A stretch of 64,000 nucleotides of DNA, from assembly GCF_036321535.1 (NCBI RefSeq), contig NC_087436.1:2294001-2358000 (forward strand), in the 5' to 3' direction. The stretch comes from Camelus dromedarius. Its lineage: Eukaryota. Shown in pieces: positions 250-62,490 of the stretch; the stretch's first letter is position 1, and each line of letters starts with the position of its first letter. The position numbers and the translations under genes are program-made. The notes beneath the pieces were generated by a model. The model ran no database searches. It worked only from the letters and a program-made list of their open reading frames with translations, and was not told the DNA's origin.

Positions 250-3200
250 TAAAACGGAGTTGGAGCTAGTACCTCCCCATATATATGTATGGAGTGGATT
301 TTGCAACTGAAAATAAATTTTGTGTTCCCAACAAGCTAGGGGAAGGACGGCTTTCACACACACTTATCTCTCAGAACTCAGCATGTGGAGAGACTTTCGC
401 TCATCTAGCACAAAGGGAACGGGTTGCAGGAGAAACTTTTACTCATTTTTCTCAGTATGTTTCCTACTTCCTGTTTGAAGTTTCTTCAGTTTTCACTGTA
501 AAACCGTGTTGGAGCTAGTACCTACCCATATATATGTATGGAGTGGAATTTGCAACTGAAAAGAAACTTTGTGTTCCCAACAAGCTAGGGGAAGGACGGC
601 TTTCACACACACTTATCTCTCAGAACTGAGCATGTGGAGAGACATTCGTTCATCTAGCACAAAGGGAACGGTTTACAGGAGAAAATTTTACTCTGGTTTC
701 TCAGTCTGTTTCCTAGTGCCGGTTTGAAGTTCCTGCAGTTTTCACTGTAAAACAGATTTGGGGCTAGTACCTCCCCATATATATGTATGGAGTGGAGTTT
801 GCAACTGAAAAGAAACTTTGTGTTCCCAACAAGTTAGTTGAAGGACGGCTTCCACACACACTTATCTCTCAGATCTGGGCAAGTGGAGAGACGTTCGTTC
901 ATCTAGCACAAAGGGAACGGGTTGCAGGAGAAACTTTTTCTCTGGTTTCTCAGTCTGTTTCCTGTTGCCGGTTTAAAGTTCCTGCAGTTTTCACTGTAAA
1001 ACCGAGTTGGAACTTGTTCCTCCCCATATATATGTATGGATTGGAGTTTGCAACTTAAAGGAACTTTGTGTTCCTAAGAAGCTAGGTGAAGGACGGCTTT
1101 CACACACACTTATCTCTCAGAACTGAGCATGTGGAGAGACGTTCGTTCATCTAGCACAAAGGGAACTAGTTGCAGGAGAAACTTTTACTCATTTTTCTCC
1201 ATCTGTTTCCTAGTGCCGGTTTGAAGTTCCTTCAGATTTCACTGTAAAACGGAGTTGGAGCTAGTACCTCCCCATATATATGTATGGAGTGGATTTTGCA
1301 ACTGAAAATAAATTTTGTGTTCCCAAAAAGCTAGGGGAAGGACGGCTTTCACACACACTTATCTCTCAGAACTCAGCATGTGGAGAGACTTTCGCTCATC
1401 TAGCACAAAGGGAACGGGTTGCAGGAGAAAATTTTACTCTGGATTCTCAGTCTGTTTCCTAGTGCCGGTTTGAAGTTCCTGCAGTTTTCACTGTAAAAGA
1501 GAGTTGGGGCTAGTACCTCCCCATATATATGTATGGAGTGGAGTTTGCAACTGAAAAGAAACTTTGTGTTCCCAGCAAGCTAGTTGAAGGACGGCTTTCA
1601 CACACACATATCTCTCAGAACTGGGCAAGTGGAGAGACGTTCGTTCATCTAGCACAAAGGGAATGGTTTGCCTGAGAAATTTTTCTCCGGTTTCTAAGTC
1701 TGTTTCCTGTTGCCGGTTTAAAGTTCCTGCAGTTTTCACTTTAAACCGATTTGGAGCTTGTCCCACCCCATATATATGTATGGATTGGAGTTTGCAACTG
1801 AAAGGAACTTGTGTTCCCAAGATGCTAGGTGAAGGACGGCTTTCACACACACTTATATCTCAGAACTGAACATGTGGAGAGACATTTGTTCATCTAGCAC
1901 AAAGGGAACGGTTTGCAGGAGAAACTTTTACTCTGGTTTATCAGTCTGTTTCCTACTGCCGGTTTGAAGTTCCTGCAGTTTTCACTGTAAAACAGAGTTG
2001 GAGCTAGTATCTCCGCATATATATGTATGGATTGGAGTTTTCAAGTGAAAAGAAACTTTGTGTTCCCAACAAGCTAGGTGAAGGAAGGCATTCACACACA
2101 CTTATCTCTCAGAACTGAGCATGTGGAGAGACGTTCGTTCACCTAGTACAAAGGGAACTGTTTGCAGGAGAAACTTTTACTCTGGTTTCTTAGTCTGTTT
2201 CCTAGTGCCGGTATGAATTTCCTGCAGTTTTCACTGTAAAACAGATTTGGAGCAAGTACCTACCCATATATATTTATGGAGTGGAGTTTGCAACTGAAAA
2301 GAAACTTTGTGTTCCCAACACGCTAGGGGAAGGACGGCTTTCACACACACTTATCTCTCAGATCTGGGCAAGTAGAGAGACGTTCGTTCATCTAGCACAA
2401 AGGAACGGGTTGCTGGAGAAAATTTACTCTGGATTCTCAGTCTGTTTCCTAGGGCCGGGTTGAAGTTTCTGCAGTTTTCACTGTAAAACAGAGTTGGGGC
2501 TAGTACCTCCCCATATATATGTATGGAGTGGAGTTTGCAACTGAAAAGAAACTTTGTGTTCCCAGCAAGCTAGGTGAAGGACGGCTTTCACACACAAATG
2601 TCTCTCAGAACTCAGCATTTGGAGAGACGTTCGTTCATCTAGCAAAAAGGGAACGGGTTGCAGGAGAAACTTTTACTCTGGTTTCTCAGTCTGTTTCCTA
2701 GTGCCGGTTTGAATTTCCTGCAGTTTTCAGTGTAAAACAGAGTTGGAGCTAGTACCTACCCATATATGTGTATGGAGTGGAGTTTGCAACTGAAAAGAAA
2801 CTTTGTGTTCCCAACAAGCTAGGCGAAGGACGGCTTTCACACAAACTTATCTCTCAGAACTGAGCATGTGGAGAGACGTTCTTTCATCTAGCACAAAGGG
2901 AACGGGATGCAGGAGAAACTTTTTCTCTGGTTTCTCAGTCTGTTTCCTAGTGCCGGTTTGAAGTTCCTGCAGTTTTCACTGTAAAATCGAGTTAGAGCTT
3001 GTACCTCACCATATACATGTATGGATTGGATTTTGCAACTTAAAAGAACTTTGTGTTCCCAAGAAGCTAGGTGAAGGACGGCTTTCACACGCACTTATCT
3101 CTCAGAACTGAGTATGTTGAGAGACGTTCGTTCATCTAGCACAAACGGAACGGGTTGCAGGAGAAACTTTTACTCCGGTTTCTCAGTCTGTTTCCTAGTG

Positions 3201-6200
3201 CCGGTTTGAATTTCCTGCTGTTTTCACTGTAAAACCGAGTTTGAGCTAGGTCCTACCCATATATATGTATGGAGTGGATTTTGCAACTGAAAAGAAACTT
3301 TGTGTTCCCAACAAGCTAGGTGAAGGACGGCTTTCACACACACTTATCTCTCAGAACTGAGCATGTGGAGAGACGTTCGTTCATCTAGCACAAAGGGAAC
3401 GGGTTGCAGGAGAAACTTTTACTCATTTTTCTCAGTATGTTTCCTACTTCCTGTTTGAAGTTTCTTCAGTTTTCACTGTAAAACCGTGTTGGAGCTAGTA
3501 CCTCCCCATATATAAGTATGGAGTGGAGTTTGCAACTGAAAAGAAACTTTGTGTTCCCAACAAGCTATGGGAAGGACGGCTTTCACACACACTTATCTCT
3601 CAGAACTGAGCATGTGGAGAGACGTTCGTTCATCTAGCACAAAGGGAATGAGTTGCAGGAAAAAATTTTACTCTGGTTTCTCAGTCTGTTTCCTAGTGCC
3701 GGTGTGAAGTTCCTGCAGTTTTCACTGTAAAACCGAGTTGGAGCTTGTACCGCCCCATAAATATGTATGGAGTGCAGTTTGCAACTGAAAAGAAACTTTG
3801 TGTTCCCAACAAGTTAGGTGAAGGTGGGCTTTCACACACAATTATCACTCAGGACTGAGCATGTGGAGAGACGTTCGTTCATCTAGCACAAATAGAACGG
3901 GTTGCAGTAGAAAATATGACTCTGGTTTCTCAGTCTGTTTCCTAGTGCCGGTTTGAATTTCCTGCATTTTTCACTGTAAAACAGAGTTGGAGCTAGTACC
4001 TACCCATATATATGTATGGAGTGGAGTTTGCAACTGAAAAGAAACTTTGTGTTCCCAACAAGCTAGGTGAAAGACGGCTTTCACACACACTTATCTCTCA
4101 GAACTGAGCATGTGGAGAGACGTTCGTTCATCTAGCACAAAGGGAACTAGTTGCATGAGAAACTTTTACTCATTTTTCTCCATCTGTTTCCTAGTGCCGG
4201 TTTGAAGTTCCTTCAGATTTCACTGTAAAACGGAGTTGGAGCTAGTACCTCCCCATATATATGTATGGAGTGGATTTTGCAACTGAAAATAAATTTTGTG
4301 TTCCCAACAAGCTAGGGGAAGGACGGCTTTCACACACACTTATCTCTCAGAACTCAGCATGTGGAGAGACTTTCGCTCATCTAGCACAAAGGGAACGGGT
4401 TGCAGGAGAAAATTTTACTCTGGATTCTCAGTCTGTTTCCTAGTGCCGGTTTGAAGTTCCTGCAGTTTTCACTGTAAAAGAGAGTTGGGGCTAGTACCTC
4501 CCCATATATATGTATGGAGTGGAGTTTGCAACTGAAAAGAAACTTTGTGTTCCCAGCAAGCTAGGTGAAGGACGGCTTTCACACACACATATCTCTCAGA
4601 ACTCAGCATGTGGAGAGACGTTCGTTCATCTAGCAAAAATGGAACGGGTTGCAGGAGAAACTTTTACTCTGGTTTCTCAGTCTGTTTCCTAGTGCCGGTT
4701 TGAAGTTCCTGCAGTTTTCACTGTAAAACCGAGCTGGAACTAGTACCTCCCTATATATATGTATGGAGTGGAGTTTCAACAGAAAAGAAACTTTGTGTTC
4801 CCTAGAAGCTAGTTGAAAGACGGCTTTCACACACACTTATCTCTCAGATCTGAGCATGTGGAGAGACTTTCGTTCATCTAGCACAAAGGGAACGGTTTGC
4901 AGTGGAAACTTTTACTCTGGTTTCTCAGTCTGTTTCCTGTTGCCGGTTTGAAGTTCCTGCAGTTTTCACTGTAAAACCGAGTTGGAGCTAGTACCTCCCC
5001 ATATATATGTATGGATTGGAGATTGCAACTGAAAAGAAACTTTGTGTTCCCAACAAGCTAGGGGAAGGACGGCTTTCACACACACTTATCTGTCAGATCT
5101 CAGCATGTGGAGAGACGTTCGTTCATCTAGCAAAAAGGGAAAGGGTTGCAGGAGAAACTTTACCCATTTATCTCAGTCTGTTTCCTAGTGCCGGTTTGAA
5201 GTTCCTGCAGTTTTCACTGTAAAATCGAGTTGGAACTAGTACCTCCCCATATATATGTATGGAGAGGAGTTTGCAAATGAAAAGAAACTTTGTATTCCCA
5301 ACAAGCTACGTGAAGGAAGACTTTCACACACACTTATCTCTCAGAAATGAGCATGTGGAGAGACGTTCGTTCATCTAGCACAAAGGGAACGGGTTGCAGT
5401 AGAAAATTTGACTCTGGATTCTCAGTCTGTTTCCTAGTGCCGGTTTGATGTTCCTGCAGTTTTCACTGTAATCCGAGTTGGAGCTATTACCTCCCTATAT
5501 ATATGTATGGAGTGGAGTTTGAAACTGAAAAGAAACTTTGTGTTCCCAACAAGCTAAGTGAAGGACGGCTTTCACACACACTTATCTCTCAGAACTGAGC
5601 ATGTGGAGAGACGTTCGTTCATCTAGCACAAAGGGAACGGGTTGCAGGGGAAACTTTTACTCTGGTTTCTCAGTCTGTTTCCTGTTGCCGGTTTGAAGTT
5701 CCTGCAGTTTTCACTGTAAAACCGAGTTGGAGCTAGTACCTCCCCATATATATGTATGGAGTGGAGTGTCAACTGAAAAGAAACTTTGTGTTCCCAAAAA
5801 GCTAGGTGAAGGACGGCTTTCACACACACTTATCTCTCAGAACTGAGCATGTGGTGAGACGTTCGTTCAGCTAGCACAAAGGGAACGGGTTACAGGAGAA
5901 AGTTTTACTCTGGTTTCTCAGTCGGTTTCCTAGTGCCGGTTTGATGTTCCTGCAGTTTTCACAGTAAAACAGAGTTGGGGCTAGTACCTCCCCATATATA
6001 TGTATGGATTGGATTTTGCAACAGAAAAGAAACTTTGTGTTCCCAACAAGTTAGGTGAAGGACGGCTTTCACACACACTTATCTCTCAGATCTCAGCATG
6101 TGGAGAGACGTTCGTTCATCTAGCACAAAGGGAAAGGGTTGCAGGAGAAACTTTACTCATTTATCTCAGTCAGTTTCCTAGTGCCGTTTTGAAGTTCCTG

Positions 6201-9200: not shown

Positions 9201-12200
9201 CCGTGTTGGCGCTAGTACCTCCCCATATATATGTATGGAGTGGAGTTTGCAACTGAAAAGAAACTTTGTGTTCCCAACAAGCTAGGTGAAGGACGGCTTT
9301 CACACACACTTATCTCTCAGAACTGAGCATGTGGAGAGACGTTCGTTCATTTAGCACAAAGGGAATGGTTTGCAGTAGAAAATTTAACTCTGGTTTCTCA
9401 GTCTGTTTCCTAGTGCCGGTTTGAATTTCCTGCATTTTTCACTGTAAAACCGAGTTGGAACCAGTACCTCCCTATATATATTTATGGATTGGAGTTTGCA
9501 ACTGAAAAGAAACTTTGTGTTCCCAACAAGATATGTGAAGGACGGCTTTCACACACACTTATCTCTCAGAGCTGAGCATGTGGAGAGACGTTCGTTCATC
9601 TAGCACAAAGGGAACGGGTTGCAGCGGAAACTTTTACTCTGGTTTCTCAGTCTGTTTCCTGATGCCGGTTTGAAGTTCCTGCAGCTTTCACTGTAAAACC
9701 GAGTTGGAGCTAGCACCTCCCCATATATATGTATGGAGTGGAGTTTGCAACTGAAAAGAAACTTTGTGTTCCCAACAAGCTAGGTGAAGGACGGCTTTCA
9801 CACACACTTATCTCTCAGAACTGAGCATGTGGAGAGACGTTCGTTCATCTAGCACAAAGGGAACGGGTTGCAGGAGAAATTTTACTCTGGTTTCTCAGTC
9901 TGTTTCCTGTTGCCGGTTTGAATTTCCTGCATTTTTCACTGTAAAACCGAGATGGAGCTAGTACCTCCCCATATATATGTATGTAGTGGAGTTTCAACTG
10001 AAAAGAAACTTTGTTTTCCCAAAAAGCTAGGTGAAGGACGGCTTTCACTCACAATTATCTCTCAGATCTCAGCATGTGGAGAGACGTTCGTTCATCTAGC
10101 ACAAAGGGAAAGGGTTGCAGGAGAAACTTTACTCATTTATCTCAGTCAGTTTCCTAGTGCCGTTTTGAAGTTCCTGCAGTTTTCACTGTAAAACCGATTT
10201 GGAGCTAGTACCTCCCTATATATATGTATGGAGTGGAGTTTGCAACTGAAAAAAAAATTTGTGTTCCCAACAATAAAGGTGAAGTACGGCATTCACACAC
10301 AATTATCTCTCAGAACTGAGCATGTGGATAGACGTTCGTTCATCTAGCACAATGGGGACGGGTTGCAGGAGAAACTTTTACTCTGGTTTCTCAGTCTGTT
10401 TCCTAGTTCCGGTTTGAAGTTCCTGCAGTTTTCACTGTAAACCGGAGTTTTAGCTAGGAGCTCCCCATATATATGAATGGAGTGGAGTTTGCAAGTGAAA
10501 AGAAACTTTGTGTTCCCAAGAAGCTAGGTGAAGGACGGCTTTCACACACACTTATCTCTCAGAACTGAGCATGTGGAGAGACTTTCGTTCATCTAGCACA
10601 AATGGAACGGGTTGCAGGAGAAAATTTTACTCTGGTTTCTCAGTCTGTTTCCTAGTGCCGGTATTAAATTCCTGCAATTTTCACTGTAAAACAGAGTTGG
10701 GGCTAGTACCTCCCCATATATATGTATGGAGTGGAGTTTGCAACTGAAAAGAAACTTTGTGTTCCCAACAAGCTAGGTGAAGGACGGCTTTCACACACAA
10801 TTATTTCTGAGAACTGAGCATGTGGAGAGACTTTCGTTCATCTAACACAAAGGGAACGGTTTGCAGGAGAAACTTTTACTCTGGTTTCTCAGTTTGTTTC
10901 CTAGTGCCGGTTTGAAGTTCCTGCAGTTTTCACTGTAAAACAGAGTTGGAGCTAGTACCAACCCATATATATGTATGGAGTGGATTTTGCAACTGAAAAG
11001 AAACTTTGTGTTCCCAACAAGCTAGGTGAAGGACGACTTTCACACACACTTATCTCTCAGAAATGAGCATGTGGAGAGACATTCGTTCATCTAGCACAAA
11101 GGGAACGTGTTGCGGTAGAAAATTTGACTCTGGTTTCTCAGTCTGTTTCCTAGTGCCGGTATGAATTTCCTACAGTTTTCACTGTAAAACAGAGTTGGTG
11201 CGAGTACCTACCCATATATATTTATGGAGTGGAGTTTGCAACTGAAAAGAAACTTTGTGTTCCCAACAAGCTAGGGGAAGGACGGCTTTCACACACACTT
11301 ATCTCTCAGATCTGGGCAAGTGGAGAGACGTTCGTTCATCTAACACAAAGGAACGGGTTGCAGGAGAAAATTTTACTCTGGATTCTCAGGCTGTTTCCTA
11401 GTTCCGGTTTGAAGTTCCTGCAGTTTTCACTGTAAAACAGAGTTGGGGTTAGTACCTCCCCATATATATGTATGGAGTGGAGTTTGCAACTGAAAAGAAA
11501 CTTTGTGTTCCCAGCAAGCTAGGTGAAGGACGGCTTTCACACACACATATCTCTCAGAACTCAGCATGTGGAGAGACGTTCGTTCATCTAGCAAAATGGG
11601 AACGGGTTGCAGGAGAAACTTTTACTCTGTTTTCTCTGTCTGTTTCCTAGTGCCGGTTTGAATTTCCTGCAGTTTTCACTGTAAAACAGTGTTGGAGCTA
11701 GTACCTACCCATATATATGTATGGAGTGGAGTTTGCAACTGAAAAGAAACTTTGTGTTCCCAACAAGCTAGGCGAAGGACGGCTTTCACACAAACTTATC
11801 TCTCAGAACTGAGCATGTGGAGAGACGTTCGTTCAGCTAGCACAAAGGGAACGGGTTGCAGGAGAAACTTTTTCTCTGGTTTCACAGTCTGTTTCCTAGT
11901 GCCGGTTTGAAGTTCCTGCAGTTTTCACTGTAAAACCGAGTTGGAGCTTGTACCTCACCATATACATGTATGGATTGGATTTTGCAACTTAAAAGAACTT
12001 TGTGTTCCCAAGAAGCTAGGTGAAGGACGGCTTTCACACGCACTTATCTCTCAGAACTGAGTATGTTGAGAGACGTTCGTTCATCTAGCACAAAGGGAAC
12101 GGATTGCAGGAGAAACTTTTACTCTGGTTTCTCAGTCTGTTTCCTAGTGCCGGTTTGAATTTCCTGCTGTTTTCACTGTAAAACCGAGTTGGAGCTAGTA

Positions 12201-12676
12201 CCTACCCATATATATGTATGGAGTGGAGTTTGCAACTGAAAAGAAACTTTGTGTTCCCAACAATCTATGTGAAGGACGGCTTTCACACACACTTATCTCT
12301 CAGAACTGAGCATGTGGAGAGACGTTCGTTCATCTAGCACAAAGGGAATGGGTTGCAGGAAAAAATTTTACTCTGGTTTCTCAGTCTGTTTCCTAGTGCC
12401 GGTGTGAAGTTCCTGCATTTTTCACTGTAAAACCGAGTTGGAGCTTGTACCGCCCCTTAAATATGTATGGAGTGGAGTTTGCAACTGAAAAGAAACTTTG
12501 TGTTCCCAACAAACTAGGTGAAGGAGGGCTTTCACACACAATTATCACTCAGGACTGAGCATGTGGAGAGACGTTCGTTCATCTAGCAAAAAGGGAACGG
12601 GTTGCAGTAGAAAATTTGTCTCTGGCTTCTCAGTCTGTTTCCTAGTGCCGGTTTGAAGTTCCTGCAGTTTTCAATG
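1..12676 (+). repeat. Left satellite domain: mosaic of dispersed multi-monomer block copies, no regular HOR
   Basis: Identical or near-identical variant monomers recur at offsets of 995 (285/1280), 3976 (285/4261), 5220 (2281/7501) and 3728 (7501/11229, 7740/11468). Confidence 0.8.
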
Positions 12677-15549
12677 TAAAACCGAGCTGGAACTAGTACC
12701 TCCCCATATATATGTATGGAGGGTAGTTTGCAACTGAAAAGAAACTTTGTGTTCCCAACAAGCTAGGTGAAGGAAGACATTCACACACACTTATTTCTCA
12801 GAAATGAGCATGTGGAGAGACGTTCGTTCATCTATCACAAAGGGAACGGGTTGCAGAAGAAAATTTGTCTCTGGTCTCTCAGTCTGTTTCCTAGTGCCGG
12901 TTTGAAGTTCCTGCAGTTTTCACTGTAAATCCGAGTTGGAGCAATTACCTCCCTATATATATGTATGGAGTGGAGTTTGCAACTGAAAAGAAACTTTGTG
13001 TTCCCAACAAGCTAGGTGAAGGACGGCTTTCACACACACTTATCTCTCAGAACTGAGCATGTGGAGAGAAGTTCGTTCATCTATCACAAAGGGAACGGGT
13101 TGCAGGAGGAACTTTTACTCTGGTTTCTCAGTCTGTTTCCTGTTGCCGGTTTGAAGTTCGTGCAGTTTTCACTGTAAAACCGAGTTGGAGCTAGTACCTC
13201 CCCATATATATGTATGGAGAGGAATTTGCAACTGAAAGGAACTTTGTGTTCCCAAGGAGCTAGGTGAAGGACGGCTTTAACACACACATATCTCTCAGAA
13301 CTGAGCATGTGGAGAGATATTCGTTCAACTAGCACAAAGGGAACGGGTTGCAGGAGAAAATTTTACTCTGGTTTCTCAGTCTGTTTCCTAGTGCAGGTTT
13401 GAAGTTCCTGCAGTTTTCACTGTAAAACCGAGTTGGAGCTTGTACCACCCCTTATATATGTATGGAGTGGAGTTTGTAAGTGAAAAGAAATTTTGTGTTC
13501 CCAACAATCTAGGTGAAGGACGTCTTTCACACACACTTATCTCTCAGAACTTAGCATGTGGAGAGACGTTCGTTCATCTAGCAAAAAGGGAACGGGTTGC
13601 AGGTGAAACTTTACTCTGGTATCTAAGTCTGTTTCCTAGTGCCGGTTTCAATTTCCTGCAGTTTTCACTGTAAAACCGAGTTGGAGCTAGTACCTCCCCA
13701 TATATATGTATGGAGTGGAGTTTGCAACTGAAAAGAAACTTTGAGTTCCCAACAAGCTAGGTGAAGGACGGCTTTCACATACATTTAACTCTCAGAACTG
13801 AGCAAGTGGAGAGACGTTCGTTCATCTAGTACAAATGGAACGGGATGCAGGTGAAACTTTTTCTCTGGTTTCTCAGTCTGTTTCCTGTTGCCGGTTTAAA
13901 GTTCCTGCAGTTTTCACTGTAAAACCGAGTTGGAGCTTGTACCTCCCATATATATGTATGGAGTGGAGTGTGCAACTGAAAGGAACTTTGTGTTCCCAAG
14001 AAGCTAGGTGAAGGACGGCTTTCACACACACTTATCTCTCAGAACTGAGCATGTGGAGAGACGTTCGTACATCTAGCACAAAGGGAACGGGTTGCAGGAG
14101 AAACTTTTACTCTGGTTTCTCAGTCTGTTTCCTAGTGCCGGTTTGAAGTTCCTGCAGTTTTCACTGTAAAACCGAGTTGGAGCTTGTACCTCCCCATATA
14201 TATGTATGGAGTGGAGTTTGCAAGTGAAAAGAAACTTTGTGTTCCCAACAAGCTAGGTGAAGGACGGCTTTCAAACACACCTATCTCTCAGAACTGAGCA
14301 TGTATAGAGACGTTCGTTCATCTAACACAAAAGGAACGGGTTGCAGGAGAAACTTTACTCTGTTTTCTCAGTCATTTCCTAGTGTCAGGTTTTAAGTTCC
14401 TGCAGTTTTCACTGTAAAACCGAGTTGGAGCTAGACCCTCCCCATATATATGTATGGAGTGGAGTTTGCAACTGAAAGGAACTTTGTGTTCCCAAGGAGC
14501 TAGGTGAAGGACGGCTTTAACACACACTTATCTCTCAGAACTGAGCATGTGGAGAGATGTTCGTTCAACTAGCACAAAGGGAACGGGTTGCAGGTGAAAC
14601 TTTTACTCTGGTTTCTCAGTCTGTTTCCTAGTTCCGGTTTGAAGTTCCTGCAGTTTTCACAGTAATACAGATTTGGAGTTTGTACCACCCCTTATATATA
14701 TATGGAGTGGAGTTTGTAAGTGAAAAGAAATTTTGTGTTCCCAACAATCTAGGTGGAGGACGGCTTTCACACACACTTATCTCTCAGAACTTAGCATGTG
14801 GAGAGACGTTCGTTCATCTAGCAAAAAGGGAACGGGTTGCAGGTGAAACTTTACTCTGGTATCTCATTCTGTTTCCTAGTGCCGGTTTCAAGTTCCTGCA
14901 GTTTTCACTGTAAAACCGAGTTGGAGCTAGTACCTCCCCACATATATGTATGGAGTGGAATTTGCAACTGAAAAGAAACTTTGTGTTCCCAACAAGCTAG
15001 GTGAAGGACGGCTTTCAAACACAATTATCTCTCAGAACTGAGCAAGTGGAGAGACTTTCGTTCATCTAGTACAAATGGAACGGGATGCAGGTGAAACTTT
15101 TTCTCTGGTTTCTCAGTGTGTTTCCTGTTGCCGGTTTGAATTTCCTGCATTTTTCACTGTAAAACCGAGTTGGAGCTAGTACCTCCCCATATATATGTAT
15201 GGAGTGGAGTTTCAACTGAAAAGAAACTTTGTTTTTCCAAAAAGCTAGTTGAAGGACTGCTTTCACTCACAATTATCTCTCAGATCTCAGCATGTGGAGA
15301 GACGTTCGTTCATCTAGCACAAAGGGAAAGGGTTGCAGGAGAAACTTTACTCATTTATCTCAGTCAGTATCCTAGTGCCGTTTTGAATTTCCTGGAGTTT
15401 TCACTGTAAAACCGAGTTGGAGCTAGTACCTCCCTATATATATGTATGGATTGGAGTTTGCAACTGAAAAAAAAATTTGTGTTCCCAACAATAAAGGTGA
15501 AGTACGGCATTCACACACAATTATCTCTCAGAACTGAGCATGTGGATAG

Positions 15550-18500
15550 ACGTTCGTTCATCTAGCACAATGGGAACGGGTTGCAGGAGAAACTTTTACT
15601 CTGGTTTCTTAGTCTGTTTCCTAGTTCCGGTTTGAAGTTCCTGCAGTTTTCACTGTAAACCGGAGTTTTAGCTAGGAGCTCCCCATATATATGTATGGAG
15701 TGGAGTTTGCAAGTGAATAGAAACTTTGTGTTCCCAAGAAGCTATGTGAAGGACGGCTTTCACACACACTTATCTCTCAGAACTGAGCATGTGGAGAGAC
15801 GTTCGTTCATCTAACACAAAGGGAACGGGTTGCAGGAGAAACTTTTACTCTGGTTTCTCAGTCTGTTTCCTAGTGCCGGTTTGAAGTTCCTGCAGTTTTC
15901 ACTGTAAAACAGAGTTGGAGCTAGTACCAACCCATATATATGTATGGAGTGGATTTTGCAACTGAAAAGAAACTTTGTGTTCCCAACAAGCTAGGTGAAG
16001 GACGGCTTTCACACAAACTTATCTCTCAGAAATGAGCATGTGGAGAGACATTCGTTCATCTAGCACAAAGGGAACGGGATGCGGTAGAAAATTTGACTCT
16101 GGTTCCTCAGCCTGTTTCCTAGTGCCGGTTTGAAGTTCCTGCAGTTTTCACTGTAAAACCGAGTTGGAGCTATTACCTCCCTATATATATGTATGGAGTG
16201 GATTTTGCAACTGAAAAGAAACTTTGTGTTACAAACAAGCTAGGTGTAGGATGGATTTCACCACACATTTCTCTCAGAACTGAGCATGTGGAGAGATGTT
16301 CGTTTATCTATCACAAAGGGAACGGGTTGCAGGAGAAATTTTACTCTGGTTTCTCAGTCTGTTTCCTAGTGCCGGTGTGAAGTTCCTGCAGTTTTCACTG
16401 TAAAACCGAGTTGGAACTAGGAGCTCCCCATATATATGTATGGAGTGGAGTTTGCAACTGAAAAGAAACTTTGTGTTCCCAAGAAGTTAGGTGAAGGACG
16501 GCTTTCACACACAATTATCTCTCAGAACTGAGCATGTGGAGAGACGTTCGTTCATCTAGCACAAAGGGAAAGGGTTGCAGGAGAAACTTTACCCATTTAT
16601 CTCAGTCTGTTTCCTAGTGCCGGTTTGAAGTTCCTGCAGTTTTCATTGTAAATCCGAGTTGGAGCTATTACCTCCCTATATATATGTATGGAGTGGAGTT
16701 TGAAACTGAAAAGAAACTTTGTGTTCCCAACAAGCTAAGTGAAGGACGGCTTTCACACACACTTATCTCTCAGAACTGAGCATGTGGAGATACGTTCGTT
16801 CATCTAGCACAAAGGGAACGGGTTGCAGGGGAAACTTTTACTCTGGTTTCTCAGTCTGTTTCCTGTTGCCGGTTTGAAGTTCCTGCAGTTTTCACTGTAA
16901 AACCGAGTTGGAGCTAGTACCTCCCCATATATATGTATGGAGTGGAGTGTCAACTGAAAAGAAACTTTGTGTTCCCAAAAAGCTAGGTGAAGAACGGCTT
17001 TCACACACACTTATCTCTCAGAACTGAGCATGAGGTGAGACGTTCGTTCAGCTATCACAAAGGGAACGGGTTACAGGAGAAAATTTTACTCTAGTTTCTC
17101 AGTCGTTTTCCTAGTGCCGGATTGATGTTCCTGCAGTTTTCACAGTAAAACAGAGTTGGGGCTAGTACCTCCCCATATATATGTATGGATTGGATTTTGC
17201 AACTGAAAAGAAACTTTGTGTTCCCAACAAGTTATGTGAAGGACGGCTTTCACACACACTTATCTCTAAGAACTCAGCATGTGGAAAGACGTTCGTTCAT
17301 CTAGCACAAAGGGAAAGGGTTGTAGGAGAAACTTTACTCATTTATCTCAGTCAGTTTCCTAGTGCCGTTTTGAAGTTCCTGCAGTTTTCACTGTAAAATC
17401 GAGTTGGAGCTAGTACCTCCCCATATATATGTATGGAGGGTAGTTTGCAACTGAAAAGAAACTTTGTGTTCCCAACAAGCTAGGTGAAGGAAGACTTTCA
17501 CACACACTTATCTCTCAGAAATGAGCATGTGGAGAGACGTTCGTTCATCTAGCACAATGGGAACGGGTTGCAGGAGAAACTTTTACTCTGGTTTCTTAGT
17601 CTGTTTCCTAGTTCCGGTTTGAAGTTCCTGCAGTTTTCACTGTAAACCGGAGTTTTAGCTAGGAGCTCCCCATATATATGTATGGAGTGGAGTTTGCAAG
17701 TGAATAGAAACTTTGTGTTCCCAAGAAGCTATGTGAAGGACGGCTTTCACACACACTTATCTCTCAGAACTGAGCATGTGGAGAGACGTTCGTTCATCTA
17801 ACACAAAGGGAACGGGTTGCAGGAGAAACTTTTACTCTGGTTTCTCAGTCTGTTTCCTAGTGCCGGTTTGAAGTTCCTGCAGTTTTCACTGTAAAACAGA
17901 GTTGGAGCTAGTACCAACCCATATATATGTATGGAGTGGATTTTGCAACTGAAAAGAAACTTTGTGTTCCCAACAAGCTAGGTGAAGGACGGCTTTCACA
18001 CAAACTTATCTCTCAGAAATGAGCATGTGGAGAGACATTCGTTCATCTAGCACAAAGGGAACGGGATGCGGTAGAAAATTTGACTCTGGTTCCTCAGTCT
18101 GTTTCCTAGTGCCGGTTTGAAGTTCCTGCAGTTTTCACTGTAAAACCGAGTTGGAGCTATTACCTCCCTATATATATGTATGGAGTGGATTTTGCAACTG
18201 AAAAGAAACTTTGTGTTACAAACAAGCTAGGTGTAGGATGGATTTCACCACACATTTCTCTCAGAACTGAGCATGTGGAGAGATGTTCGTTTATCTATCA
18301 CAAAGGGAACGGGTTGCAGGAGAAATTTTACTCTGGTTTCTCAGTCTGTTTCCTAGTGCCGGTGTGAAGTTCCTGCAGTTTTCACTGTAAAACCGAGTTG
18401 GAACTAGGAGCTCCCCATATATATGTATGGAGTGGAGTTTGCAACTGAAAAGAAACTTTATGTTCCCAAGAAGTTAGGTGAAGGACGGCTTTCACACACA

Positions 18501-19523
18501 ATTATCTCTCAGAACTGAGCATGTGGAGAGACGTTCGCTCATCTAGCACAAAGGGAAAGGGTTGCAGGAGAAACTTTACCCATTTATCTCAGTCTGTTTC
18601 CTAGTGCCGGTTTGAAGTTCCTGCAGTTTTCATTGTAAATCCGAGTTGGAGCTATTACCTCCCTATATATATGTATGGAGTGGAGTTTGAAACTGAAAAG
18701 AAACTTTGTGTTCCCAACAAGCTAAGTGAAGGACGGCTTTCACACACACTTATCTCTCAGAACTGAGCATGTGGAGATACTTTCGTTCATCTAGCTCAAA
18801 GGGAACGGGTTGCAGGGGAAACTTTTACTCTGGTTTCTTAGTCTGTTTCCTGTTGCCGGTTTGAAGTTCCTGCAGTTTTCACTGTAAAACCGACTTGGAG
18901 CTAGTACCTCCCCTTATATATGTATGGAGTGGAGTGTCAACTGAAAAGAAACTTTGTGTTCCCAAAAAGCTAGGTGAAGAACGGCTTTCACACACACTTA
19001 TCTCTCAGAACTGAGCATGAGGTGAGACGTTCGTTCAGCTATCACAAAGGGAACGGGTTACAGGAGAAAATTTTACTCTAGTTTCTCAGTCGTTTTCCTA
19101 GTGCCGGATTGATGTTCCTGCAGTTTTCACAGTAAAACAGAGTTGGGGCTAGTACCTCCCCATATATATGTATGGATTGGATTTTGCAACTGAAAAGAAA
19201 CTTTGTGTTCCCAACAAGTTATGTGAAGGACGGCTTTCACACACACTTATCTCTCAGAACTCAGCATGTGGAAAGACGTTCGTTCATCTAGCACAAAGGG
19301 AAAGGGTTGTAGGAGAAACTTTACTCATTTATCTCAGTCAGTTTCCTAGTGCCGTTTTGAAGTTCCTGCAGTTTTCACTGTAAAATCGAGTTGGAGCTAG
19401 TACCTCCCCATATATATGTATGGAGGGTAGTTTGCAACTGAAAAGAAACTTTGTGTTCCCAACAAGGTAGGTGAAGGAAGACTTTCACACACACTTATCT
19501 CTCAGAAATGAGCATGTGGAGAG
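15550..19523 (+). repeat. Tandem duplication of an 8-monomer block (period 1987 bp)
   Basis: Matching translations at 16189/18176 and 17181/19168. The variant CAATGGG is at 15568 and 17555. Confidence 0.92.
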
Positions 19524-22500
19524 ACGTTCGTTCATCTATCACAAAGGAACGGGTTGCAGAAGAAAATTTGACTCTGGTCTCTCAGTTTGTTTCCAAGTGC
19601 CGGTTTGAAGTTCCTGCAGTTTTCACTGTAAATCCGAGTTGGAGCTATTACCTCCCTATATATATGTATGGAGTGGAGTTTGCAACTGAAAAGAAACTTT
19701 GTGTTCCCAACAAGCTAGTTGAAGGACGGCTTTCACACACACTTATCTCTCAGAACTGAGCATGTGGAGAGAAGTTCGTTCATCTATCACAAAGGGAACG
19801 GGTTGCAGGAGAAACTTTTACTCTGGTTTCTCAGTCTGTTTCCTGTTGCCGGTTTGAAGTTCGTGCAGTTTTCACTGTAAAACCGAGTTGGAGCTAGTAC
19901 CTCCCCATATATATGTATGGAGAGGAATTTGCAACTGAAAGGAACTTTGTGTTCCCAAGGAGCTAGGTGAAGGACGGCTTTAACACACACATATCTCTCA
20001 GAACTGAGCATGTGGAGAGATATTCGTTCAACTAGCACAAAGGGAACGGGTTGCAGGAGAAACTTTTACTCTGGTTTCTCAGTCTGTTTCCTAGTGCAGG
20101 TTTGAAGTTCCTGCAGTTTTCACTGTAAAACCGAGTTGGAGCTTGTACCACCCCTTATATATGTATGGAGTGGAGTTTGTAAGTGAAAAGAAATTTTGTG
20201 TTCCCAACAATCTAGGTGAAGGACGTCTTTCACACACACTTATCTCTCAGAACTTAGCATGTGGAGAGACGTTCGTTCATCTAGCAAAAAGGGAACGGGT
20301 TGCAGGTGAAACTTTACTCTGGTATCTCAGTCTGTTTCCTAGTGCCGGTTTCAATTTCCTGCAGTTTTCACTGTAAAACCGAGTTGGAGCTAGTACCTCC
20401 CCATATATATGTATGGAGTGGAGTTTGCAACTGAAAAGAAACTTTGAGTTCCCAACAAGCTAGGTGAAGGACGGCTTTCACATACAATTAACTCTCAGAA
20501 CTGAGCAAGTGGAGAGACGTTCGTTCATCTAGTACAAATGGAACGGGATGCAGGTGAAACTTTTTCTCTGGTTTCTCAGTCTGTTTCCTGTTGCCGGTTT
20601 AAAGTTCCTGCAGTTTTCACTGTAAAACCGAGTTGGAGCTTGTACCTCCCATATATATGTATGGAGTGGAGTTTGCAACTGAAAGGAACTTTGTGTTCCC
20701 AAGAAGCTAGGTGAAGGACGGCTTTCACACACACTTATCTCTCAGAACTGAGCATGTGGAGAGACGTTCGTACATCTAGCACAAAGGGAACGGGTTGCAG
20801 GAGAAACTTTTACTCTGGTTTCTCAGTCTGTTTCCTAGTGCCGGTTTGAAGTTCCTGCAGTTTTCACTGTAAAACCGAGTTGGAGCTTGTACCTCCCCAT
20901 ATATATGTATGGAGTGGAGTTTGCAAGTGAAAAGAAACTTTGTGTTCCCAACAAGCTAGGTGAAGGACGGCTTTCAAACACACCTATCTCTCAGAACTGA
21001 GCATGTATAGAGACGTTCATTCATCTAACACAAAAGGAACGGGTTGCAGGAGAAACTTTACTCTGGTTTCTCAGTCATTTCCTAGTGTCAGGTTTTAAGT
21101 TCCTGCAGTTTTCACTGTAAAATCGAGTTGGAGCTAGTACCTCCCCATAAATATGTATGGAGTTTAGTTTGAAATTGAAAAGAAACTTTGTGTTCACAAC
21201 AAGCTAGGTGAAGGACGGCTTTCACACACACTTATCTCTCAGATCTGAGCATGTGGAGAGACTTTCGTTCATCTACCACAAAGGGAACGGGTTGCAGGAG
21301 AAACTTTTTCTCTGGTTTCACAGTCTGTTTCCTGTTGCCGGTTTGAAGATCCTGCAGTTTTCACTGTACAACCGAGTTGGTGCTAGTACCTCCCCATATA
21401 TATGTATGGAGTGGAGTTTCAACTGAAAAGAAACTTTGTGTTCCCAAGAGGCTAGGTGAAGGACGGGTTTCACACACACTTATCTCTCTGAACTGACAAT
21501 GTGTAGAGAGCTTCGTTCATCTAGCACAAAGGGAACGGGTTGCAAGAGAAACTTTTCTCTGTTTTCTCAGTCTGTTTCCTAGTGCCGATTTGAAATTCCT
21601 GCAGTTTTCACTGTAAAACCGAGTTGGATCTAGTAACTCCCCATATAAATGTATGGAGTGGAGTTTGCAACTGAAAAGAAACTTTGTGTTACCAACAAGC
21701 TAGGGGAAGGACGGCTTTCACACACACTTATCTCTCAGAACTGAGCAAGTGGAGAGACGTTCGTTCATCTAGCACAAAGGGAACGGGTTGCAGGAGAAAC
21801 TTTTTCTCTTGTTTCTCAGTCTGTTTCCTGTTGCCGGTTTAAAGTTCCTGCATTTTCACTGTAAAACCTAGTTGGAGATAGTACCTCCCCATATATATGT
21901 ATGGAGTGGAGTTTGCAACTGAAAGGAACTTTGTGTTCCAAAGGAGCTAGGTGAAGGACGGCTTTAACACACACTTATCTCTCAGAACTGAGCATGTGGA
22001 GAGATGTTCGTTCAACTAGCACAAAGGGAACGGGTTGCAGGTGAAACTTTTACTCTGGTTTCTCAGTCTGTTTCCTAGTTCCGGTTTGAAGTTCCTGCAG
22101 TTTTCATAGTAATACAGATTTGGAGCTTGTACCACCCCTTATATATGTATGGAGTGGAGTTTGTAAGTGAAAAGAAATTTTGTGTTCCCAACAATCTAGG
22201 TGAAGGACGGCTTTCACACACACTTATCTCTCAGAACTTAGCATGTGGAGAGACGTTCGTTCATCTAGCAAAAAGGGAACGGGTTGCAGGTGAAACTTTA
22301 CTCTGGTATCTCAGTCTGTTTCCTAGTGCCGGTTTCAAGTTCCTGCAGTTTTCACTGTAAAACCGAGTTGGAGCTAGTACCTCCCCACATATTTGTATGG
22401 AGTGGAATTTGCAACTGAAAAGAAACTTTGTGTTCCCAACAAGCTAGGTGAAGGACGGCTTTCAAACACAATTATCTCTCAGAACTGAGCCAGTGGAGAG

Positions 22501-25500
22501 ACTTTCGTTCATCTAGTACAAATGGAACGGGATGCAGGTGAAACTTTTTCTCTGGTTTCTCAGTCTGTTTCCTGTTGCCGGTTTAAAGTTCCTGTAGTTT
22601 TCACTGTAAAACCGAGTTGGAGCTAGTACCTCCCCATATATATGTATGGAGTGGAGTTTGCAACTGAAAGGAACTTTGTGTTCCCAAGGAGCTAAGTGAA
22701 GGACGGCATTAACACACACTTATCTCTCAGAACTGAGCATGTGGAGAGATGTTCGTTCAACTAGCACAAAGGGAACGGGTTGCAGGGGAAATTTTACTCT
22801 GGTTTCTCAGTCTGTTTCCTGTTGCCGGTTTGAATTTCCTGCATTTTTCACTGTAAAACCGAGTTGGAGCTAGTACCTCCCCATATATATGTATGGAGTG
22901 GAGTTTCAACTGAAAAGAAACTTTGTTTTTCCAAAAAGCTAGTTGAAGGACTGCTTTCACTCACAATTATCTCTCAGATCTCAGCATGTGGAGAGACGTT
23001 CGTTCATCTAGCACAAAGGGAAAGGGTTGCAGGAGAAACTTTACTCATTTATCTCAGTCAGTATCCTAGTGCCGTTTTGAATTTCCTGGAGTTTTCACTG
23101 TAAAACCGAGTTGGAGCTAGTACCTCCCTATATATATGTATGGAGTGGAGTTTGCAACTGAAAAAAAACTTTGTGTTCCCAACAATAAAGGTGAAGGACG
23201 GCTTTCACACACACTTATCTCTCAGAACTGAGCATGTGGAGAGACTTTCGTTCATCTAGCACAAATGGAACGGGTTGCAGGAGAAAATTTTACTCTGGTT
23301 TCTCAGTCTGTTTCCTAGTGCCGGTATTAATTTCCTGCAATTTTCACTGTAAAACAGAGTTGGGGCTAGTACCTCCCCATATATATGTATGGAGTGGAGT
23401 TTGCAACTGAAAAGAAACTTTGTGTTCCCAACAAGCTAGGTGAAGGACGGCTTTCACACACACTTATTTCTGAGAACTGAGCATGTGGAGAGACGTTCGT
23501 TCATCTAACACAAAGGGAACGGGTTGCAGGAGAAACTTTTACTCTGGTTTCTCAGTCTGTTTCCTAGTGCCGGTTTGAAGTTCCTGCAGTTTTCACTGTA
23601 AAACAGAGTTGGAGCTAGTACCAACCCATATATATGTATGGAGTGGATTTTGCAACTGAAAAGAAACTTTGTGTTCCCAACAAGCTAGGTGAAGGACGGC
23701 TTTCACACACACTTATCTCTCAGAAATGAGCATGTGGAGAGACATTCGTTCATCTAGCACAAAGGGAACGGGATGCTGTAGAAAATTTGACTCTGGTTCC
23801 TCAGTCTGTTTCCTAGTGCCGGTTTGAAGTTCCTGCAGTTTTCACTGTAAAACCGAGTTGGAGCTAGTACCTCCCTATATATATGTATGGAGTGGATTTT
23901 GCAACTGAAAAGAAACTTTGTGTTACAAACAAGCTAGGTGTAGGATGGATTTCACCACACATTTCTCTCAGAACTGAGCATGTGGAGAGATTTTCGTTTA
24001 TCTATCACAAAGGGAACGGGTTGCAGGAGAAATTTTACTCTGGTTTCTCAGTCTGTTTCCTAGTGCCGGTGTGAAGTTCCTGCAGTTTTCACTGTAAAAC
24101 CGAGTTGGAACTAGGAGCTCCCCATATATATGTATGGAGTGGAGTTTGCAACTGAAAAGAAACTTTGTGTTCCCAAGAAGTTAGGTGAAGGACGGCTTTC
24201 ACACACAATTATCTCTCAGAACTGAGCATGTGGAGAGACGTTCGTTCATCTAGCACAAAGGGAAAGGGTTGCAGGAGAAACTTTACCCATTTATCTCAGT
24301 CTGTTTCCTAGTGCCGGTTTGAAGTTCCTGCAGTTTTCATTGTAAATCCGAGTTGGAGCTATTACCTCCCTATATATATGTATGGAGTGGAGTTTGAAAC
24401 TGAAAAGAAACTTTGTGTTCCCAACAAGCTAAGTGAAGGACGGCTTTCACACACACTTATCTCTCAGAACTGAGCATGTGGAGATACGTTCGTTCATCTA
24501 GCACAAAGGGAACGGGTTGCAGGGGAAACTTTTACTCTGGTTTCTCAGTCTGTTTCCTGTTGCCGGTTTGAAGTTCCTGCAGTTTTCACTGTAAAACCGA
24601 GTTGGAGCTAGTACCTCCCCATATATATGTATGGAGTGGAGTGTCAACTGAAAAGAAACTTTGTGTTCCCAAAAAGCTAGGTGAAGAACGGCTTTCACAC
24701 ACACTTATCTCTCAGAACTGAGCATGAGGTGAGACGTTCGTTCAGCTATCACAAAGGGAACGGGTTACAGGAGAAAATTTTACTCTAGTTTCTCAGTCGT
24801 TTTCCTAGTGCCGGATTGATGTTCCTGCAGTTTTCACAGTAAAACAGAGTTGGGGCTAGTACCTCCCCATATATATGTATGGATTGGATTTTGCAACTGA
24901 AAAGAAACTTTGTGTTCCCAACAAGTTATGTGAAGGACGGCTTTCACACACACTTATCTCTCAGAACTCAGCATGTGGAAAGACGTTCGTTCATCTAGCA
25001 CAAAGGGAAAGGGTTGTAGGAGAAACTTTACTCATTTATCTCAGTCAGTTTCCTAGTGCCGTTTTGAAGTTCCTGCAGTTTTCACTGTAAAATCGAGTTG
25101 GAGCTAGTACCTCCCCATATATATGTATGGAGGGTAGTTTGCAACTGAAAAGAAACTTTGTGTTCCCAACAAGCTAGGTGAAGGAAGACTTTCACACACA
25201 CTTCTCTCTCCGAAATGAGCATGTGGAGAGACGTTCGTTCATCTATCACAAAGGGAACGGGTTGCAGAAGAAAATTTGACTCTGGTCTCTCAGTTTGTTT
25301 CCTAGTGCCGGTTTGAAGTTCCTGCAGTTTTCACTGTAAATCCGAGTTGGAGCTATTACCTCCCTATATATATGTATGGAGTGGAGTTTGCAACTGAAAG
25401 AAACTTTGTGTTCCCAACAAGCTAGGTGAAGGACGGCTTTCACACACACTTATCTCTCAGAACTGAGCATGTGGAGAGAAGTTCGTTCATCTATCACAAA

Positions 25501-35600: not shown

Positions 35601-36660
35601 TGAAGGACGGCTTTCACACACACTTATCTCTCAGAACTGAGCATGTGGAGAGACTTTCGTTCATCTAGCACAAATGGAACGGGTTGCAGGAGAAAATTTT
35701 ACTCTGGTTTCTCAGTCTGTTTCCTAGTGCCGGTATTAATTTCCTGCAATTTTCACTGTAAAACAGAGTTGGGGCTAGTACCTCCCCATATATATGTATG
35801 GAGTGGAGTTTGCAACTGAAAAGAAACTTTGTGTTCCCAACAAGCTAGGTGAAGGACGGCTTTCACACACACTTATTTCTGAGAACTGAGCATGTGGAGA
35901 GACGTTCGTTCATCTAACACAAAGGGAACGGGTTGCAGGAGAAACTTTTACTCTGGTTTCTCAGTCTGTTTCCTAGTGCCGGTTTGAAGTTCCTGCAGTT
36001 TTCACTGTAAAACAGAGTTGGAGCTAGTACCAACCCATATATATGTATGGAGTGGATTTTGCAACTGAAAAGAAACTTTGTGTTCCCAACAAGCTAGGTG
36101 AATGACGGCTTTCACACACACTTATCTCTCAGAAATGAGCATGTGGAGAGACATTCGTTCATCTAGCACAAAGGGAACGGGATGCTGTAGAAAATTTGAC
36201 TCTGGTTCCTCAGTCTGTTTCCTAGTGCCGGTTTGAAGTTCCTGCAGTTTTCACTGTAAAACCGAGTTGGAGCTAGTACCTCCCTATATATATGTATGGA
36301 GTGGATTTTGCAACTGAAAAGAAACTTTGTGTTACAAACAAGCTAGGTGTAGGATGGATTTCACCACACATTTCTCTCAGAACTGAGCATGTGGAGAGAT
36401 TTTCGTTTATCTATCACAAAGGGAACGGGTTGCAGGAGAAATTTTACTCTGGTTTCTCAGTCTGTTTCCTAGTGCCGGTGTGAAGTTCCTGCAGTTTTCA
36501 CTGTAAAACCGAGTTGGAGCTAGGAGCTCCCCATATATATGTATGGAGTGGAGTTTGCAACTGAAAAGAAACTTTGTGTTCCCAAGAAGTTAGGTGAAGG
36601 ACGGCTTTCACACACAATTATCTCTCAGAACTGAGCATGTGGAGAGACGTTCGTTCATCT

Positions 36661-62400: not shown

Positions 62401-62490
62401 GAAGGACGGCTTTCACACACACTTATCTCTCAGAACTGAGCATTTGGAGAGACTTTCGTTCATCTACCACAAAGGGAACGGGTTGCAGGA
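56460..62490 (+). repeat. Near-perfect duplication with 13-monomer period (3221 bp)
   Basis: Translations match at 57527/60748, 57755/60976, 58879/62100 and 59178/62399, all at offset 3221. Confidence 0.92.

Follow-up and report, generated by a model that had tools for sequence, protein, structure and literature searches.

How did a repeated unit with two kinds of monomers come to lie inside a single satellite array? The camel DNA considered here, a window of 64 kb that was analysed at its whole length and to which all coordinates refer, contains a higher-order repeat (HOR) that the earlier note had described as a chimera, born at the boundary between two flanking satellite sub-families, capturing about half of its monomers from each and then amplified. 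The birth at a boundary and the subsequent amplification proved largely right, with the nearest neighbours, the tree, a profile classifier, and the joint monomer h in agreement. We put at roughly three in four the probability that a border-straddling block of about 6 kb was duplicated by unequal crossover and then amplified into the HOR.

Array, flanking domains, and layout of the HOR

The window consisted of one tandem array throughout (period 249, 257.8 copies, 90% matches), in which nhmmer found 258 monomers of 247 to 249 bp, close to the earlier figure of about 257, all 258 of them on the + strand. The 249-bp array was unbroken and in one orientation over at least 304 kb inside a 123-Mb contig of the 2.3-Gb genome; the satellite occupied 2.15 to 2.81 Mb from the start of this contig, with further copies on many other contigs. 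Flanks of 100 kb on each side (453 left and 505 to 512 right monomers) were added, and then the section from -140 to -100 kb, so that in all 152 kb of left flank and the right side to +164 kb were covered. The array was filled with many HOR-like local patches, local duplications, and hybrid monomers.

A left variant domain extended from about -88 kb to +9.7 kb and a right variant domain from about +38.5 kb to +122 kb, with the HOR exactly between them. In block cross-validation, a profile classifier correctly assigned 98.5% of 405 left and 93.6% of 312 right monomers, and its binned score flipped sign between 8 and 38 kb, the signs alternating inside the HOR. Some variants were near 0% in one flank and at 15 to 37% in the other. 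Distinct sub-family consensus sequences were not found for the two flanks, monomer identity being 0.905 within each flank versus 0.900 between flanks. The flanks are domains of one satellite family that differ in common variant types, not separate sub-families; of the proposed boundary between two sub-families, the separability of the flanks by the classifier stood and the existence of two sub-families did not. Right-type monomers did not return further left: the section from -140 to -100 kb held none of the types e, f, P, Q, U, T, g, V, and W and 1 R-type monomer among 160.

Monomer types were defined by clustering at 3%, and the repeat order was also taken from diagonal runs. The canonical order of the HOR was O P Q R S T e f g U V W h X L M N Z a b G c H d, an irregular unit of about 24 monomers, in which P-h correspond to the earlier labels B-M, X-a to N-S, and G c H d to V-Y. 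The homogenised interior (12918 to 36743, + strand) comprised four units of 18 to 31 monomers with monomer-scale insertions and deletions. Both the type string and diagonal runs of 16 to 19 monomers revealed a multi-monomer unit repeated head to tail, and matching positions across units were far more alike than monomers within one unit, with same-type interior copies 99.24% identical on average (137 pairs) versus about 90% for all monomers. No constant period, maintained through a large number of copies, was found; the interior had only four units, and the lags in the HOR were 8, 21, 23, 26, 27, 28, 31, 49, and 50 monomers. The structure is better called a young, irregular, locally amplified HOR patch. 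With its diverged edges it ran from 9686 to 38480; the span of 12926 to 25336 given earlier lies in a real HOR and takes in only its first two units (27 and 23 monomers). The unit at 29793 to 35005 (+ strand), typed by nearest neighbours, classifier, and tree, may serve as an example: its left-type part, X L M N G c H d O (29793 to 32029), was followed by its right-type part, P Q R S T e f g U V W h (32030 to 35005).

Sources of the two halves of the unit

With 100-kb flanks on each side, the nearest non-HOR neighbour lay to the right for all 11 consecutive types P-W and to the left for X, L, M, N, Z, b, G, c, H, d, and O; Y and a were tied, and h was ambiguous. The chance of 11 of 24 cyclic positions falling in one arc was 9.6e-6, and Fisher's test after related types had been collapsed into families gave p=4e-5, both values being only nominal because the monomers are not independent. 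At identities of at least 94%, types P, Q, R, T, e, f, g, U, V, and W labelled 84 of the 337 monomers in the right domain and 3 of the 601 on the left, and types X, L, M, Z, a, b, G, c, H, and d labelled 11 of the 601 monomers left of 9686 and none of the 505 right of 38480. In a FastTree phylogeny of 1062 monomers, the non-HOR members of the clades of h, P, Q, R, T, e, f, g, U, V, and W were all from the right domain or the right edge, and a left-flank monomer was the first sister of X, L, M, N, Y, Z, a, b, G, c, H, and d. In addition, the sister of S was a far-right monomer, and O had two right-domain monomers as its sisters.

The phylogeny and nearest-neighbour mapping that the earlier note had proposed thus came out as predicted, the B-M half leading to the right flank and the N-Y half to the left. 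Its individual observations were also reproduced: five B-M motifs had no occurrences left of 12669 and 2, 3, 4, 9, and 11 occurrences right of 36743, and four N-S motifs occurred once or twice each on the left and not at all on the right. The pairs of positions that it had matched corresponded to the monomer at 9934 and X (9952 and 22864; 96.8%), the monomer at 5461 and G (5623 and 16804/24498; 98.8%), and the monomer at 5957 and H (6000 and 17181; 97.6%). Part of the right-flank evidence that it had drawn from 37 kb onward (36744 to 38480) is, by contrast, the HOR's own diverged last copy. In a genome-wide search, no relative of a HOR block above 94% was found outside the locus among the 39 to 40 of 7,000 to 16,000 candidates that were scored (a lower bound).

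When the classifier was trained only on monomers left of 0 kb and right of 45 kb, away from the HOR, the left half had a mean log-likelihood ratio (LLR) of -0.9, true left monomers scoring -9 to -16, and types L, a, c, d, and O were positive. Under this training, the signs along the unit showed no significant clustering (10 switches; p=0.62 by permutation), and p was 0.059 in the best-arc test. By this measure, a clear domain type is seen only in the right half; the left half has specific left-flank paralogues without a domain-wide left signature. The claim that half of the monomers came from each side was borne out by neighbours that split by side and not by the domain-wide signature of the left half.

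The joint monomer, the edges, and the origin of the HOR

Three copies of monomer h (22599 to 22845, 29546 to 29792, and 34759 to 35005, all on the + strand) had a right-type 5' part and a 3' part like that of m39, a left-edge monomer (9686 to 9933, + strand) directly before the diverged leftmost copy of X. In the MAFFT alignment, columns 1 to 189 of the third copy differed at no position from m154, a right-edge monomer (38233 to 38480, + strand), and at 10 from m39; from column 190, it differed at 2 positions from m39 and at 8 from m154, and the h copies as a group showed 1 to 2 differences from m39 there. As a mosaic the third copy had 2 mismatches versus 11 for the best single parent. Among the 1062 monomers, the last 59 or so columns of m39 were common only to the three h copies (at most 2 mismatches), and m154 was the only non-h monomer without a mismatch over columns 0 to 163, the next, at 40217, having 4. 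A genome search with the W-h-X triple returned 3 matches at 99 to 100%, and the next best of the candidates scored was the left edge, at 94%. Reads from four runs placed on V-W-h-X-L gave contigs of about 50 to 90 letters at very high depth, and no monomer joint was informatively spanned by them.

Clean two-parent hybrids were frequent, 45 of the 1062 monomers reaching the score of h, and hybrid status alone is weak evidence (about the 95th percentile). Since hybrids are common in the array, the argument for duplication rests on which monomers are the parents of h. Its 5' part matched the last monomer of the segment and its 3' part the first, and both unrecombined parents, m154 and m39, stood at the outer ends of the duplicated region. 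This is the pattern that an in-register unequal exchange across the border leaves when it duplicates a segment in tandem.

The copies next to these parents were diverged. On the left, X' L' M' N' Z' (9934 to 11176, + strand) were collinear with the interior at 96.6 to 98.1% (mean, 97.5%), and the collinear run h X L M N Z at 9686 to 11176 had 97.1% identity. The rest of the leftmost unit (11177 to 12917, + strand) was rearranged: it read J K D E F. d and was not fully collinear, with J K D E F. in the positions that a b G c H occupy in the interior. Positions 10928 to 12170 were 98.6% identical to 7200 to 8442, at a lag of 15 monomers, and the monomer at 12669 belonged to type d in diverged form, its closest d differing at 8 positions. 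On the right, the partial copy T' e f' g U (V/W) (36744 to 38232, + strand) formed the edge of the HOR as a 6-monomer collinear run at 97.3%, T' to U averaging 97.7% against the interior. Its last monomer was a V/W hybrid (37984 to 38232; mosaic 1 mismatch, single parent 12), directly followed by m154, and this unit was cut off, without a separate W. Shorter collinear right-type runs were present at 39.0, 40.7, 48.2, 78.2, and 80.4 kb. The edge copies were thus 97.5% (left) and 97.7% (right) identical to the interior, versus 99.24% among interior copies. Because the outermost copies are not collinear over their whole length, later events must be assumed.

These observations suggest the following course. 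A founding segment of about 24 to 25 monomers (about 6.2 kb), from the monomer at 9686 to a U-type monomer like that at 38233, would have lain across the border. An in-register unequal exchange between these two end monomers, with its breakpoint probably between alignment columns 164 and 189, would have produced the tandem duplication and h; the partners may have been sister chromatids or homologues, and a replication template switch would look identical. Further unequal exchanges would then have amplified and homogenised the interior copies, now 0.76% apart, and the outermost partial copies would have escaped homogenisation and remained 2.3 to 2.5% diverged. Besides the near-zero classifier score of the left half and the truncated rightmost copy without a separate W, two features run against this course. 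The leftmost unit reads J K D E F. d after Z', not a b G c H d, and a paralogous block of 4 monomers, G' c' H' d' (5461 to 6453, + strand; 96.0 to 98.5%, on average 97.3%, identical to interior G, c, H, and d), stands to the left of where the founding segment would have begun and needs an extra event. A further G c H d paralogue was present at -45.5 to -44.5 kb.

An older unit composed entirely of left-type monomers (G c H d ... X L M N Z) might instead have had its middle 12 to 13 monomers swapped for right-domain sequence, by gene conversion or double exchange, and have been amplified later, h then being the right end of the converted tract and not a duplication joint. This history would place the G' c' H' d' block naturally, and G'-d' and X'-Z' are 14 monomers apart in the left flank as d and X are 13 apart in the HOR, spacings that imply similar unit lengths. 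We nevertheless regard it as unlikely: the 13 monomers at 6454 to 9685 were all at most 95% identical to O...W and formed no diagonal with them, a second all-left unit was not seen in the 152 kb of left flank, and a replaced tract does not predict that the only exact match of the 5' half of h should lie at the right edge of the HOR. As 6454 to 9685 formed no similarity diagonal with O...W, the idea that the left flank holds an aged, diverged copy of the HOR was dropped as well.

Duplication across the border followed by further unequal exchanges would also account for the whole-monomer insertions and deletions among the units, each of which would be marked by its own hybrid monomer. The joint of the first unit (14903 to 15151) combined a W 5' part with an h/m39-type 3' end (mosaic 1, single parent 6 mismatches). 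Type Y was an M/N hybrid with two 100% identical copies (15648 to 15896 and 17635 to 17883; for the copy at 17635, mosaic 1 mismatch versus 10 for the best single parent). A d/L hybrid (17386 to 17634; mosaic 1, single parent 10) formed the joint of an internal 8-monomer duplication, whose lag-8 run was 99.5% identical; an L/M hybrid (23093 to 23341; mosaic 0, single parent 14) marked a one-monomer deletion; an h/f hybrid (28306 to 28552; mosaic 0, single parent 4) marked the joint of a 5-monomer duplication (f g U V W); and a hybrid of a b 5' part and a right-type 3' part (36496 to 36743; mosaic 3, single parent 13) marked the deletion that truncated the last unit, all of these hybrids lying on the + strand. 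For O as a second hybrid joint, with a G-type 5' part and a right-type 3' part, the single parent gave 7 and the mosaic 4 mismatches, which was within the null range.

Satellite arrays misassemble easily, and a false join at a shared stretch, whether between the reads of the two domains or of two haplotypes, could mimic an in-register crossover and yield both the alternation and the hybrids. Such an artefact is very improbable here, since the three h copies share one breakpoint with a private change in one of them, several independent gains and losses of whole monomers distinguish the units, a clean hybrid accompanying each of them, and the array is continuous and in a single orientation over 304 kb inside the 123-Mb contig. 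It is more improbable still that there was no real border, similarity merely decaying with distance or the flanks having converted the HOR after its amplification, as the difference of only about 0.5 to 0.6% between identity within and between flanks and the weaker classifier signal in the last 10 kb before the HOR might suggest, given that the unit halves lie about 3 kb apart and yet right-type relatives reach 85 kb to the right with 3 of 601 monomers on the left, that the partition is alike in all four units, which conversion after amplification would not give, and that at the next domain border, +124 to +128 kb, no similar alternation was found.

Significance and relation to known systems

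The founding event of a HOR is rarely readable. Within 29 kb this locus has kept the hybrid joint, both of its parents, both source domains, and the later insertions and deletions, so that the order of events can be reconstructed. The locus may be used as a worked example and to test both HOR-annotation software and models of satellite domain layering. The understanding of satellites is unchanged by it, because each of the elements involved (unequal exchange, hybrid monomers, diverged array ends) was already established; the camel HOR is a clean example of an ordinary, well-known process. An improbable extension is that domain borders in satellite arrays are preferred birthplaces of HORs, where reduced homology could favour long-range misalignment. 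If so, a boundary-born chimeric unit would seed a new homogenising layer, possibly the next functional core, and this layer would push the two older domains apart.

The unequal-crossover model of tandem-repeat evolution reportedly goes back to Smith in 1976, and tandem arrays are more diverged at their ends. The camel HOR resembles the model in its out-of-register duplication, its homogenised interior, and its more diverged ends. To our knowledge, neither that model nor the end-of-array effect addresses a duplication spanning two variant domains.

A literature search found no paper pairing a chimeric or hybrid HOR with alpha satellite, and no wider absence is claimed. In two papers on human alpha satellite (PMC9248890, HORmon; PMC9549924), structural variants of HORs with in-register prefix/suffix hybrid monomers are described, and in PMC9549924 the hybrids are presumed to arise by unequal crossover and conversion. 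The human HORs and the camel HOR are alike in having units about 99% alike, whole-monomer insertions and deletions, and in-register hybrids that keep monomer length. Unlike alpha satellite, the camel monomer has 247 to 249 bp and an unrelated sequence, and the camel unit is irregular and present in only four or five copies. A further difference from the alpha-satellite hybrids is that h appears to mark the founding joint of the HOR, with both unrecombined parents still at the edges. The S5 monomers of New World monkeys, found in S4-S5-S3 trimers, are likewise chimeric and come from exchange between different monomer types; that case involves a 25-bp register shift and a dimer, whereas the camel exchange would have been in register and would have joined the ends of a segment of about 24 monomers.

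The satellite array and its variant domains

A single tandem array spans all 64,000 bases of the window (Tandem Repeats Finder: period 249, 257.8 copies, matches 90%), and a profile derived from monomers of the window itself resolved it into 258 head-to-tail monomers of 245 to 249 bp on the + strand. Sequence was added on both sides, 100 kb each plus another 40 kb to the left (negative coordinates lie left of the window, and those above 64 kb lie to its right). The flanks were the same array in one orientation, without interruption (1064 monomers with the 100-kb extensions and 162 in the extra left 40 kb). Elsewhere in the 2.3-Gb genome (171 contigs), the same satellite was found at 90 to 94% on many other contigs among the matches listed. 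The present array covers at least 660 kb, at about 2.15 to 2.81 Mb on contig C1 (123 Mb), close to one of its ends; the window corresponds to 2294001-2358000. Arrays of the same satellite occur internally on other large contigs, such as C6 (~80 to 87 Mb), C3 (~118 Mb), and C11 (~65 to 71 Mb). These positions would fit a candidate centromeric or pericentromeric satellite.

The earlier note had described a higher-order repeat (HOR) in the window as a chimera born at the border of two satellite subfamilies. The observation was confirmed and the reading is supported, with the difference that the two lineages exist only in a weak sense: the flanks represent variant domains of a single family, with a mean identity of 0.905 in the left flank, 0.906 in the right flank, and 0.900 between them. 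A number of variants are present at ~0 to 1% in one flank and 15 to 37% in the other, and a naive-Bayes profile classifier assigned monomers in held-out 10-kb blocks correctly for 98.5% of 405 left and 93.6% of 312 right monomers. The binned classifier score lay well below zero between -88 and +8 kb and well above it between +38 and +122 kb; its zero crossing fell exactly over the HOR, within which the sign alternated with the two arcs of the repeat unit. At ~+124 to +128 kb, the right domain gives way in a simple switch to a third population of monomers. This border showed neither an alternating nor a chimeric unit, although a 16-mer x3 patch is located immediately inside it. In the 40 kb beyond -100 kb, no right-type monomers were found except one of type R (letters denote HOR monomer types from 3% clustering, and primes denote diverged copies). 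The consensus-like type N made up 143 of 441 left monomers and 6 of 337 right-domain monomers, and type S made up 44 of 441 and 81 of 337, respectively; even the generic monomer thus differs between the domains.

The higher-order repeat and the relatives of its two halves

Clustering at 3%, together with diagonal runs, placed an irregular HOR at 12918-36743, with the canonical order O P Q R S T e f g U V W h X L M N Z a b G c H d. Its four units contain 18 to 31 monomers each and differ by whole-monomer insertions and deletions; copies of the same type share a mean identity of 99.24% (137 pairs), versus about 90% array-wide. The true extent of the HOR is 9686-38480; a leftmost diverged copy, X' L' M' N' Z', lies at 9934-11176 (97.5% to the interior) and a diverged, partial rightmost copy, T' e f' g U (V/W), lies at 36744-38232 (T' to U, mean 97.7%). 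Part of what the earlier note had cited as right-flank evidence is this last copy of the HOR itself. In the leftmost unit, X' L' M' N' Z' is followed by J K D E F. d in place of the a b G c H d that follows Z in the interior; the 98.6% identity of 10928-12170 to 7200-8442 suggests a later local exchange or conversion there.

The nearest-neighbor test proposed in the earlier note, run against non-HOR monomers (453 left and 505 to 512 right), bore out its expectation for most types. All 11 of the P-W types (the right half of the unit) had their nearest neighbor on the right, most with all eight nearest neighbors there; X, L, M, N, Z, b, G, c, H, d, and O had left-side nearest neighbors, which fell into two collinear blocks (5461-6453 and 9686-11176). 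Types Y and a were tied, and h was ambiguous. The monomer pairs that it had cited also held (96.8%, 98.8%, and 97.6% identity), as did its motifs: none of the five from its monomers B-M (here P-h) occurred left of 12669, and all were found on the right, with the reverse pattern, present left and absent right, for the four from N-S (here X-a; its V-Y are G c H d). At an identity of at least 94%, ten right-half types matched 84 of 337 monomers at 38.5 to 122 kb versus 3 of 601 on the left, and ten left-half types matched 11 of 601 left monomers versus 0 of 505 on the right; Fisher P values on such type counts are only nominal, because the monomers are related by duplication. A FastTree phylogeny of 1062 monomers gave the same partition with two partial exceptions, S, whose sister is a far-right monomer, and O, which is sister to two right-domain monomers in a clade otherwise composed of G and left-flank monomers. 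An additional left paralogue set of the left half, at -45 kb, belongs to a segmental duplication of ~50 kb within the left domain.

With retraining of the classifier restricted to monomers that lie left of 0 kb or right of 45 kb, the right half of the unit still resembled the right domain (mean, +10.6, versus +15.4 in the held-out right flank), and the left half (X-d) scored approximately zero (mean, -0.9, versus -9.1 in the held-out left flank). The halves differed (Mann-Whitney P = 0.0024); sign clustering along the unit was not significant (P = 0.62), and a best-arc test gave P = 0.059. This outcome counts against the simple reading of the HOR. The left half is therefore linked to the left flank through specific paralogues and lacks the general signature of the left domain.

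The joint monomer and the proposed founding duplication

The right-type arc is linked to the left-type arc by h, a hybrid monomer. In a MAFFT alignment of raw sequence, columns 1 to 189 of h were identical to the edge monomer at 38233-38480 and differed in 10 columns from the edge monomer at 9686-9933; from column 190, h differed in 1 to 2 columns from 9686-9933 and in 8 from 38233-38480. Modeled as a mosaic of two parents, h shows 2 mismatches, versus 11 to its best single parent, and among the 1062 monomers tested, 38233-38480 was the sole exact match to its 5' part and 9686-9933 the sole match to its 3' part. The monomer at 9686-9933 immediately precedes X' L' M' N' Z', and that at 38233-38480 immediately follows T' e f' g U (V/W), so that they occupy the sites predicted for the unrecombined parents under tandem duplication. 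The probable founding event is a single in-register unequal exchange between the two, which would have duplicated a segment of ~24 to 25 monomers with a left-type start and a right-type end; the founding joint is thus identifiable together with its two parents.

Replacement of the middle of an older, all-left unit by a right-type tract would fit the similar spacing (14 versus 13 monomers) but appears unlikely, as the sequence between the two left blocks lends it no support and it does not predict a parent monomer at the right edge. The G' c' H' d' block (5461-6453), which differs from the interior by 2.7%, comparable to the edges (2.5% and 2.3%), sits left of the presumed start of the founding segment. 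Type a (36249-36495; also present at 16146, 18133, and 23840) lacks any relative above 92% throughout the 264 kb from -100 to +164 kb, and no two-parent mosaic fitted it (14 mismatches left).

Other hybrid monomers and local duplications across the array

Other interior discontinuities of the HOR carry hybrids of their own: W/h-3' at 14903 (1 mismatch as a mosaic versus 6 to the best single parent), d/L at 17386 (1 versus 10), M/N, which is type Y, at 17635 with an identical copy at 15648 (1 versus 10), L/M at 23093 (0 versus 14), h/f at 28306 (0 versus 4), b/right-type at 36496 (3 versus 13), and V/W at 37984 (1 versus 12). Repeated in-register exchange therefore also accounts for the later amplification and the irregular units.

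The same 264 kb is a patchwork of local two- to four-copy duplications with periods of 8 to 32 monomers (99.4 to 99.9%), including a 16-mer x3 at +111.7 to +123.6 kb, a 19-mer x2 at -14.4 to -5.2 kb, a 16-mer x2 at -3.5 to 4.2 kb, and a 13-mer x2 at 56602-62798. In addition, the left domain (-81 to +6.5 kb) contains long-range segmental duplications of 37 to 57 kb at lags of 148 to 229 monomers (98 to 99%; for example, -51698..-48965 versus 491..3222), which account for the G/H/d-like monomers present as a third copy at -45.5 to -44.5 kb. Of 1062 monomers, 45 were two-parent hybrids matching h in cleanness (an improvement of at least 9 mismatches over every single parent, with 2 or fewer remaining), and in-register exchange joints are therefore frequent array-wide. 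With borders every ~100 kb and patches everywhere, an occasional patch across a border is expected, and a border-straddling HOR is not very special. Among the HOR variants of human alpha satellite, both hybrid monomers and unequal exchange are already established (PMC9248890 and PMC9549924).
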